DNA from: Giardia intestinalis
Taxonomy: Eukaryota
Assembly: GCA_000002435.2 (NCBI GenBank)
Contig: CM018792.1
Direction: 5' to 3' (one strand)
Length of the DNA: 64,000 bases
The notes beneath the pieces were generated by a model. The model saw only the letters and a list, made by a program, of their open reading frames with translations. It had not been told where the DNA came from and ran no database searches. Shown here one piece after another: positions 7,777 to 10,164 of this stretch (position 1 is its first letter; every line of letters starts with the position of its first letter). The translations under genes were made by a program, and so were the position numbers.

Positions 7777-10074
7777 TCACGCCTTCCCCCTGCAGATGAA
7801 CCACCAGCAGAGGAACCCTATGAGACCCCCCACGACGACGACCACAGCGACGGAGATCCCCGCGATGGCCCCCGTGGAGAGCCCGCCCCTGTTGGCGCCA
7901 GAGGACACACACATGCCATCCCTCGGGACATAGCCCTCCTCGCACTCCCCGCAGACGCCCTCTGCGCTGCACCGCATGCACCTCTCTATGTCACAGACAA
8001 TGCACTGGGTGCCGTCCAGGCTGGGTCTCTGGTCTTTATTGGTACATGCCTCACACTTGTTGTCTGCGCTGCAGTGAGAGCAGCCCTGGGCCGGACACAC
8101 ATAGCAGGTGCTTCCAGCCATGTTGGGCTTCTTATTGTCCTCAGCACACACCTCGCACATCCCGTCGATGGCGCAGCTCTTGCACCCGCCGACCGCACAC
8201 AGGGTGCACCCGCTGCCATCCTTGTTGGGCTTCTTCGTCTTGTCGCACGCACTACAGACCGCCGCGGCCATCGCATTGGCGGCTGGCGCCTGCGGGGCCG
8301 CGCACGCCGTGCAGTCTAGCACGCCGACGTACGCCTTGTCGCCCGCGGTCGCTCCCACAGGGTTGCCACAGGCAAGCACGGACTGCTGAGCAGCAGAGTC
8401 CCCGGGAATCTTGAAGTAGCGCCCGACCGGTGTGGTGCAGAACCCACTTGGAGCCGCAGAGCACATGAGGTTGCCAGGAGCCTTCGACACATCATAGCAA
8501 CCACCCATATAGAGGAAGTAGTTGTTGGTGCACCGCGTACATACGCCATCGGCGCAGGTATTACCTGCAAGTGCATTGGTGCACTTCCCATTAATAGGGC
8601 CATAGCCGGCGCCAACACACTTTGAACAGTAAGAGAGCATGCTGCCGTCGTTGCCGACCACGATGGCGTCGCAGGCCCCTGCTGTCCCTCCACATGCAGT
8701 CTCATCTTCACAGGTCTTTGTACATGTGAGGTCGCTAGGTTCTCCGCTGGGTCTGTAGTTGGGCTTACATTCAGTGCATTTGAGGGACCCCACGCCGCCT
8801 GTGCACTCGACACAGCCTGGAATCCCACTTGTCTCGTCATCACAGAGAACGCATGTCTTAGGCGGGCCATCCTTAAGGAAGTACCCCGGCATGCATCTTG
8901 TACATGTGTTGATTTGACCCGCTGTTCCGCACTCTGCGCAGTTTCCTGTGCAGGCCTCGCAGGCGTTTCCGTTGACTTTATACCCGTCGACACAAGCCTC
9001 GCAGGTGCCTTTTGCGGTGCACAGCTTGCAGTTCTGGACTCCGCCCTTACCATTGTCGCCGCACTGCACGCACTTCGAGGCGTCGTAGAAGTGCGTCTTG
9101 CCCACTTTGCACTCGGCCTCATCAACACAGGTCGTTGTCCCATCCAGCTCGTCTCTGACCGTCTTACTACCGCAGTCGGTGCACTTCGGCTTTCCCGTGG
9201 CGTCGTCGTATGCACACGCGGTGCATCCTTGTATCTCACTGCAGGCCTTACAGGTCCAGGTCTTCTTGTCCGCATAGTTACCATTGTCACATCCACCAGC
9301 ATCTACACAAGTGTTACCACCCTTCAAGTACTTCCCCTCAACGCAGGCGGTACACTGAGTCGGAGTATCAGCTGAGCAAGCAGAGCAGCCGTCTCCGCAC
9401 TTCACACATGCACTGCCCTTCGTAACGAACCCTGCTTGACACTCTGTACACGTGGCCGGTCCGCTAGTGCCCGTGTGGGAGCATTCTGAGCATCCAGCGA
9501 CTCCCATGACCCCGTTTCTATCTATAGTATCGGAGCACAAGATGCACTCGCTACCCTTCTCTGATGGTGTAACTGGGTTCTTGAACAGGCCGTTAGCTGT
9601 CTTACACTCAGTGCACAGTCCTCCCTCAGCCTTTGTGCATATCTCGCTGCCGGGCCCGTCGGTTGTCTTGTAGCACCCGCCCATGAAGAGGAAGTACCCG
9701 TCGCCGCACTTTCCGCAGGTGGTTGCCGTCTTGTCGAGGGCAGTCCCGTCTGCTTGGGTGCACCCGGCTGCCGCGGCCTGGGGGGAGCCGGGGGGCCAGC
9801 AGAAGCCGTCGACTGGGACGCCCCCGGTCTTGCACTCGGTGCAGATCTCTGTGCTACCGACCGTCTCGCACTTATCGGTCTGGCAGGTCGCTGTATGGTT
9901 CCCGTCTTGCTGGCAGGTCACTGCAAGCGCGCTCACCACGAACAGGGGTATCAGTAGAAAGGCTGTGGTGTGGACCGGATTGCGTGCAGCGGGTGGGGGT
10001 GCCCCGGCGGCCTCCTCTCTGAGACTCCCACTCCGAGGGTTGCCCCAGGGGGGAGCCCGCTGGCCTGGTCGCAC
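7777..10074 (-). CDS. vsp: VSP-like unit 5: most complete unit (signal-peptide-like segment present) but no in-frame ATG upstream of it
   Basis: The 765-aa ORF has the CRGKA tail, GGCY motifs and many CXXC motifs. Its N-terminus contains a hydrophobic signal-like stretch (TAFLLIPLFVVSALAVTC). However, the track's start is a GTG at 10072-10074, and there is no ATG anywhere in the 200 nt upstream on this strand. The first in-frame ATG is at FLFMGGCY, which lies inside the mature region. Confidence 0.75.
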   Translation of the reverse strand: MRPGQRAPPWGNPRSGSLREEAAGAPPPAARNPVHTTAFLLIPLFVVSALAVTCQQDGNHTATCQTDKCETVGSTEICTECKTGGVPVDGFCWPPGSPQAAAAGCTQADGTALDKTATTCGKCGDGYFLFMGGCYKTTDGPGSEICTKAEGGLCTECKTANGLFKNPVTPSEKGSECILCSDTIDRNGVMGVAGCSECSHTGTSGPATCTECQAGFVTKGSACVKCGDGCSACSADTPTQCTACVEGKYLKGGNTCVDAGGCDNGNYADKKTWTCKACSEIQGCTACAYDDATGKPKCTDCGSKTVRDELDGTTTCVDEAECKVGKTHFYDASKCVQCGDNGKGGVQNCKLCTAKGTCEACVDGYKVNGNACEACTGNCAECGTAGQINTCTRCMPGYFLKDGPPKTCVLCDDETSGIPGCVECTGGVGSLKCTECKPNYRPSGEPSDLTCTKTCEDETACGGTAGACDAIVVGNDGSMLSYCSKCVGAGYGPINGKCTNALAGNTCADGVCTRCTNNYFLYMGGCYDVSKAPGNLMCSAAPSGFCTTPVGRYFKIPGDSAAQQSVLACGNPVGATAGDKAYVGVLDCTACAAPQAPAANAMAAAVCSACDKTKKPNKDGSGCTLCAVGGCKSCAIDGMCEVCAEDNKKPNMAGSTCYVCPAQGCSHCSADNKCEACTNKDQRPSLDGTQCIVCDIERCMRCSAEGVCGECEEGYVPRDGMCVSSGANRGGLSTGAIAGISVAVVVVVGGLIGFLCWWFICRGKA

Positions 10075-10164
10075 ACGAGGCGCCCTGTCGTGTGCCCGGA
10101 GGGACGGCGCTGCACGGGCGACGGGTGAGAGGTGGGATCGGCTCGTCGAGACAGAGTAATGGCT

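Follow-up and report, generated by a model that had tools for sequence, protein, structure and literature searches.

The minus strand of positions 1-9963 of a 64,000-nucleotide stretch of the Giardia intestinalis WB genome (contig CM018792.1; hereafter the window), located on a chromosome of 2,761,001 bp (RefSeq NC_051859.1), carries variant-specific surface protein (VSP) sequences arranged head-to-tail. The sequence at the head of this array, hereafter referred to as unit 5, is very probably a VSP pseudogene head without a start codon, old and propagated, that is followed by a linear array of cassettes truncated at their 5' ends. Its frame is that of a full-length VSP, with the triplet GCC in the position of the initiator ATG, and the GCC-bearing leader recurs, together with the GC-rich spacer upstream of it, at several loci in WB and in the independently sequenced isolate DH.

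Unit 5 and the array that it heads

Unit 5 is uninterrupted over 728 codons (2.2 kb), from the GCC to the C-terminal CRGKA and its TGA stop codon. Its translation matches Pfam PF03302 VSP (E 9.7e-44) and has the Cys-rich ectodomain of a VSP, with 34 CXXC motifs, 12.6% Cys and two GGCY motifs, followed by the transmembrane domain and CRGKA tail that characterize the C-terminus of these proteins (...AIAGISVAVVVVVGGLIGFLCWWFICRGKA, then the stop). VSPs have an extended poly(A) signal, GACTTAGGTAGTRAAYGCKK, that overlaps the stop codon; unit 5 carries GACTTAGGTAGTGAATGCTG at 7778-7759, a VSP-specific motif that appears in Table S6 of bioRxiv 10.1101/2022.03.07.483299, and the four units downstream of it have the signal too.

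The sequence-only reading of this region had proposed that unit 5 begins with a VSP leader that has lost its initiator Met, with GCC in the initiator position. The minus strand of 9940-10164 reads ...NPVHTTAFLLIPLFVVSALAVTCQQ..., in another excerpt ...NPVHTTAFLLIPLFVVSALAVTCQQDGNH..., and alignment with paralogues bears out both parts of the proposal. The GCC at 9963..9961, 16 codons ahead of the first Cys of unit 5, aligns with Met in the close homologues that have a start, namely DH P0034 (MFQLIPLFVASTIAVTC), P0032 from an ENA sequence (MLLTAFYVVLGSFAAPC), P15 P0035 and WB GL50803_00114674 (MFQLIPLFVASALMAAC), and in all four the homologous codon is ATG. Complete VSPs carry the initiator element PyAATGTT at precisely this codon; it was reported in 135 of 136 of them, in the form CAatgTT in 61.5% (bioRxiv 10.1101/2022.03.07.483299), and the intact paralogues P0034 and P0032 display TAATGTT and CAATGTT, respectively. 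Unit 5 has CAGCCTT at 9965-9959, a CA-GCC-TT arrangement that keeps the flanks of the CAATGTT element with all three ATG bases changed, and PyAATGTT is absent. The hydrophobic leader is present and would begin with Ala (GCC) in place of Met.

The lack of any ATG between this codon and the stop at 10165, which had also been pointed out from the sequence, extends further than was claimed: from 10206 to 9684 the minus strand is devoid of ATG in all frames. Neither strand of the window has a longer ATG-free run than this one of 522 nt (P(0 ATG) = 0.011 in mononucleotide shuffles); the 201-nt spacer taken alone is unremarkable in this respect (P(0 ATG) = 0.29, mononucleotide shuffles). The next in-frame Met, at 9684, lies 93 codons downstream and is not followed by a leader. 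Because unit 5 lacks both an ATG and an initiator element, and its first possible AUG lies beyond the signal peptide, it would be unable to produce a secreted surface protein. The GL2.1-based catalogue of bioRxiv 10.1101/2022.03.07.483299 classes as a VSP pseudogene (pVSP) a VSP-like sequence that has no proper start codon or open reading frame (ORF), or in which no in-frame Met yields a signal peptide, and unit 5 belongs to this class. There is no NCBI protein record starting at the in-frame ATGs at 9684 or 9507 of unit 5, which is consistent with the pseudogene call. Unit 5 should hence be treated as a VSP pseudogene rather than as a gene with a mis-called start.

Mapping of the array by self-BLAST places five CRGKA stops on the minus strand, at 240, 2115, 4029, 5946 and 7777. 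At the end of every unit stand CRGKA, the TGA and the poly(A) motif GACTTAGGTAGTGAATGCTG specific to VSPs, and homology to the following unit restarts after ~30-70 nt. Units 1-3 recur with a period of ~1914 bp at 93-98% mutual identity, and unit 4 is less similar. Units 1-4 start within the coding region, near FMGGCY / GSEICT and tens of bases past the preceding poly(A) signal, and homology between units 1-3 and unit 5 is found only from 9692 downward. As the sequence-only reading had held, unit 5 is the only full-length unit of the array, and the N-terminal region is confined to it. The layout agrees with the VSP linear arrays of Adam 2010, defined as at least two adjacent head-to-tail VSPs, with spacers ranging from overlapping to ~241 bp and downstream members lacking an initiator element. 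Unit types like 1-3 (MLYSDSDSAMWCGGDSDSMRLLFMGGCY...) carry pVSP annotation in GL50803_0050266 and GL50803_0050202. An exact look-up of possible annotated products of units 1-5 returned no match in the protein collection, and the gene numbers near the locus are absent from the Adam 2010 supplements. The CRGKA stop at 240 is accompanied by homology to the 5' region of a unit at 76-193, where the array runs over the left edge of the window; the array therefore comprises at least six units.

Copies, flanking segment and composition of the start-less head

The head of unit 5 is not private to the window. In DH (sub-assemblage AII), contig AHGT01000095.1 (hereafter L008) is collinear with window positions 12960-9500 at 93.7% identity, in a chromosomal context that differs from that of the window. 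Within this collinear stretch identity is 97.7% over a 442-aa gene and 93.0% over the spacer, and the stretch also takes in the GCC codon and the leader. It is inside the VSP rather than at the GCC that identity drops, to 81% in the head, where there is a 30-nt indel, and to 75% further in. In WB, the spacer, CACAGCC and the leader are found at no fewer than four further loci: GL50803_0050032 and intergenic3706 on NC_051860.1, and intergenic3038 and intergenic3063 on NC_051859.1. Because the sequences of these paralogues come from the supplement of bioRxiv 10.1101/2022.03.07.483299 rather than the genome, the copy number is a minimum. All six aligned copies (window, DH and the four WB loci), representing two isolates, carry GCC.

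The extent of the shared upstream DNA varies. The intergenic3706 copy has only the proximal ~90 nt of the spacer, after which the sequence is unrelated and the context is without the 442-aa gene, and the intergenic3038 excerpt departs about where that gene would end. Variation within the spacer is unevenly distributed, with 4 variable sites among the six copies in the ~77 nt next to the GCC (9964-10040) and 24 in the distal ~120 nt; the low variation of the proximal part may reflect either recent homogenisation or constraint. Spacer, GCC and leader together form the stable unit, and the VSP body the variable part. A protein search with the translated spacer and head returned, besides the DH copy (P0134), only three further N-terminal VSP fragments, and this search found no ATG-bearing copy of the spacer.

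Several further observations concern such heads. One of these three fragments, P0135, on a 648-bp ENA contig from an unrelated sample, has Pro rather than Met at -16 and a different upstream sequence; heads without a start would thus seem not to be rare. In the DH copy (L008 11420-11905) 30 nt are deleted after the leader, and the frame is shifted by what look like single-base deletions in C-runs; these may be real decay or homopolymer sequencing errors. The resulting 161-aa DH product is named 'DnaJ-type Zn finger domain protein, partial' in GenBank. A metagenome scan with a 29-mer from the spacer gave 0 matches. A 17-mer from the leader gave 79, which we regard as chance matches and not Giardia, because outside the 17-mer even the best of them are dissimilar, with 41 of 82 bases at most in common.

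Upstream lies a truncated, multi-copy duplicate of a core locus (~10141-13038), containing parts of a divergent pair formed by a PIKK-type kinase gene and a ~450-aa gene (Table 1). The 442-aa ORF GL50803_00111911 is found in WB in four near-identical copies, and its gapless alignment with P0131 covers 433 residues at 60% identity. In another Giardia lineage, P0131 has a 2630-aa PI3_PI4-kinase gene on one side and DNA polymerase epsilon on the other, and no VSP is close to it. Homology to L016, a contig with a single-copy homologue of the ~450-aa gene, continues 24 nt past the TAG of GL50803_00111911, to window position 10141, where the L016 contig stops; the ~450-aa gene therefore already had the first ~24 nt of the spacer as its 3' flank in the ancestral locus. 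Between WB and DH, GL50803_00111911 has a dN/dS of ~0.49 (13 synonymous and 18 non-synonymous changes) and its conservation exceeds that of its flanks, so that it may have remained functional; in RNA-seq tables its TPM (transcripts per million) is low.

On the opposite strand, residues 20-333 of the ORF at 12041-13375 (444 aa, TTG start) correspond to the N-terminal ~314 residues of the kinase at 54-63% identity. The kinase homology stops at ~13038 and the frame stays open for ~110 codons more; for two ATG starts of this ORF there is no matching protein record, and it is probably a pseudogene fragment. In six short-read (Logan) assemblies of WB-like samples the contigs all break at window positions 12925-13008, which shows that everything leftward of this point is repeated in the genome. 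The edge of the duplication is marked by these breaks, by the end of DH homology at 12960 and by the end of L016 and L011 homology at ~13038.

Table 1. Features of the array head, the downstream units and the adjoining segment in the window
Feature	Position	Strand	Description and basis
GCC at initiator-Met position	9961..9963	-	Aligned with paralogues that have ATG and with the five further copies that have GCC
Unit 5	7777..9963	-	Probable full-length VSP pseudogene; 728 codons from GCC to CRGKA plus TGA; no start codon
Leader FLLIPLFVVSALAVTC	9913..9960	-	Signal-peptide-like; translation and paralogue alignment
Rest of N-terminal region private to unit 5	9693..9912	-	Self-BLAST
Poly(A) signal of unit 5, GACTTAGGTAGTGAATGCTG	7759..7778	-	VSP-specific extended type
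Units 1-4	240..7776	-	VSP pseudogene cassettes truncated at the 5' end; CRGKA, TGA and poly(A) signal present in all
Spacer	9964..10164	-	201 bp, GC-rich, non-coding; common to other start-less heads
GL50803_00111911	10165..11493	-	442-aa conserved hypothetical gene, exact match; TAG at 10167..10165
Truncated duplicate of PIKK-type (PI3_PI4 kinase) N-terminus	12098..13038	+	BLASTP against L011 and L016 genes
GL50803_0016869	13436..18604	+	Exact match

The spacer reaches 71.1% GC, a value attained in no more than 0.08% of the 201-bp windows across the 64 kb. The sharp rise in GC at ~9.95 kb described in the sequence-only reading is correct as far as this high value goes, but there is no step at that point: GC content is 52.5% in units 1-4, 58.9% in the body of unit 5 and already 65.7% in its private head (9693-9963), where 100-bp windows at 9700-9849 reach 74%. 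Upstream, the ORF at 10165-11493 has 63.0% GC and the interval 11494-12960 has 62.8%, so that ~9.7-12.96 kb stands at ~63% or more; the remaining, unique part of the window is at 47.5%. The 1 kb upstream of the intact, ATG-bearing paralogue P0034 is likewise at 68% GC. High GC is a regional property, and not the mark of a junction or a sign of foreign DNA, because it covers the VSP head, the spacer and the multi-copy duplicate and also flanks an intact gene.

Elevated GC has been reported in VSP-bearing regions (bioRxiv 10.1101/2022.03.07.483299). The WB and DH copies of the ~450-aa gene have 62-63% GC, 67-68% GC at third codon positions (GC3) and 37% Gly+Ala+Arg+Pro, against 44-46% GC, GC3 of ~40% and 21-23% Gly+Ala+Arg+Pro in its single-copy homologues (L011 6001-7356, L016 3674-5023). 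Plausibly, biased gene conversion would have produced the enrichment in this repeated DNA associated with VSPs. Elsewhere in the window a 201-bp GC content of at least 71% is reached solely at 63746-63957, a stretch at the right edge, past the ORF at 62147-63550, that is overlapped by short ORFs only.

Origin of the head and alternative explanations

We propose that the head module consists of a ~90-200-bp GC-rich block, CA-GCC-TT in place of CA/TA-ATG-TT, and an otherwise normal signal-peptide coding stretch. This module would have had a single origin, before the split of WB (AI) and DH (AII), and would have spread afterwards by segmental duplication, with four of the copies behind a duplicated core-locus fragment (PIKK N-terminus plus ~450-aa gene) and at least two more in other contexts. 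Past the leader the VSP bodies vary between copies, pointing to exchange among VSP sequences. The GCC could stem either from an ancient junction at the start codon or from a triple substitution in place, and either event would predate the spread of the module. Unit 5 would then be silent DNA, at most raw material for recombination with expressible VSPs. What speaks against such an old pseudogene is that the 728-codon frame, the tail and the poly(A) signal of unit 5 are all intact, which is notable at that age; exchange with live VSPs could explain this intactness.

An event specific to this array had been suggested from the sequence, in which a recombination at ~9.95 kb joined a foreign GC-rich segment to unit 5 and thereby removed its ATG. 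Such a breakpoint would agree with the regional GC maximum in the spacer, with the three base changes that separate ATG from GCC, and with the DNA homology to the ATG-bearing paralogues (L001/P0034 and L009/P0032), which begins directly after the initiator codon. The homology limit fits an old junction, or the end of a conversion tract, at the start codon. It is nevertheless weak evidence, because the upstream DNA of unrelated VSPs is unalignable anyway, a homology stop at the ATG being the norm for VSP 5' flanks outside duplications (bioRxiv 10.1101/2022.03.07.483299), and because the CA sits in a CA-rich run (CCACACCACAG). The junction itself is neither private nor recent: it recurs in DH L008 and, within WB, at a minimum of four other loci, where spacer, GCC and leader are inherited as a block, and the DH collinearity passes through it. 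Nor does composition set the segment apart as foreign, the unit 5 head being already at 66-74% GC and the flank of an intact paralogue at 68%. We therefore consider an array-specific breakpoint very unlikely. An ancient start-codon junction at the origin of the whole module may be part of the propagated pseudogene-head explanation that we favour, and is distinct from a breakpoint in this array. What had been taken for a breakpoint would be a repeated, old module instead of a local event, a correction of little weight beyond bookkeeping.

Expression of unit 5 by unconventional means, whether by readthrough of the TAG of GL50803_00111911, by non-AUG initiation or by cis- or trans-splicing of an ATG onto ...CACAG|CC, is extremely unlikely. 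The intact 2.2-kb frame, the good conservation of the proximal ~80 nt, which are the best-conserved part of the spacer, and the resemblance of the CACAG before the GCC to Giardia 3' splice sites would favour it, as would the fact that the VSP frame is open and continuous with the 442-aa ORF across a single TAG (10167..10165) in the window, in DH L008 and in GL50803_0050032. The continuity looks like a by-product of composition, however, because in nearly every copy the spacer is free of stops in each of the three frames, which is what 71% GC would lead one to expect. Across the six copies its 28 variable sites are distributed 10/12/6 by codon position; with no excess at third positions and three stop-free frames, a coding or readthrough spacer was rejected. 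A fusion would moreover place the signal peptide ~510 residues into the protein, and intergenic3038 and intergenic3706 appear, in short flank excerpts, without the upstream ORF.

Splicing fares no better. Against the Giardia consensus (PMC10711314), in which Type A introns, one mismatch at most being allowed, combine the donor [G/C]TATGT with a fused branch-point/3' site of the form CT[A/G]ACACACAG, the candidate 3' motif CCACACCACAG differs at 4 of 11 positions, including the branch-point region, and the intron reading was discarded. The donor is impossible near the start of unit 5, since the 522-nt run is ATG-free. The spacer has no Rfam match at E <= 1 and no excess RNA structure, both strands folding worse than shuffled sequences (z = +1.19 and +1.71).

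That the GCC is an artefact of sequencing or assembly has next to no probability. The region is repetitive and is collapsed by short-read assemblies, but six independent copies agree on GCC, and they come from two isolates, the long-read WB reference and DH, which excludes a sequencing error; three adjacent base errors are implausible in themselves.

We also consider it very improbable that the start-less head (the ~80-nt proximal GC block, CA-GCC-TT and the leader) is a maintained element rather than debris. It is conceivable that it would serve as a silent array head that becomes an expression site once gene conversion from a live VSP restores the ATG, or as a donor of leader and N-terminal sequence; a version in which the ATG is gained by trans-splicing at ...CACAG|CC is also conceivable. 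The intact 728-codon frame, the preserved flanks of the initiator element and the scarcity of variation in the proximal block across the six copies may favour maintenance, and simple recent duplication with homogenisation would also be compatible with them.

Relation to known VSP arrays and pseudogenes

A propagated, start-less VSP pseudogene head is a feature of a kind already described and catalogued for Giardia, and this one is ordinary. VSP linear arrays are head-to-tail, with very short spacers and downstream members that lack the initiator element or start; these members have been read as unexpressed cassettes or remnants, and VSPs without an ATG as probable pseudogenes (PMC2996952). A GL2.1-based catalogue lists 217 Cys-rich pseudogenes, including array pVSPs with 'no proper start codon' (bioRxiv 10.1101/2022.03.07.483299).

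The pVSP GL50803_0050032 (WB chromosome 5, RefSeq pseudogene; Table S7 of bioRxiv 10.1101/2022.03.07.483299) resembles unit 5 in its TAG, GC-rich spacer and CACAGCC. Its leader, LLIPLFVVSALAVTC, is the same as that of unit 5, and it is annotated as a VSP pseudogene without a proper start codon, the annotation beginning one base past the TAG. It differs from unit 5 in the second leader codon (TCT versus TTT), in a 10-codon deletion after the leader and in having another VSP body. The closest intact relatives of the unit 5 head are GL50803_00114674 in WB and P0034 in DH (MFQLIPLFVAS...CQQDGNH / CRSDGNHTATCQT), the DNA of P0034 being 85% identical to window positions 9955-9542 and its upstream flank likewise GC-rich. 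Unlike unit 5, both have TAATGTT with a real ATG, and their upstream DNA is unalignable with the spacer.

For Giardia specialists, the family of identical start-less VSP heads would link several pVSP arrays, and a core-locus fragment (PIKK N-terminus and ~450-aa gene) has been duplicated into VSP regions and strongly enriched in GC; both bear on recombination in VSP regions and on their GC richness. In the arrays described by Adam 2010 (PMC2996952) the first member often keeps a long upstream region and an initiator element, whereas here the first member is start-less. This start-less first member is the sole departure from the published picture of such arrays.

Trypanosome VSG pseudogene arrays likewise consist of incomplete surface-antigen genes and are thought to act as sequence donors. 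The pVSP arrays of Giardia muris that lack signal peptides, as they are cited in bioRxiv 10.1101/2022.03.07.483299, are also incomplete surface-antigen arrays thought to be sequence donors. Unlike in these donor-array systems, antigen switching in Giardia intestinalis is described as epigenetic or post-transcriptional, not recombinational, and a donor role of unit 5 and the cassettes behind it would be hypothetical.

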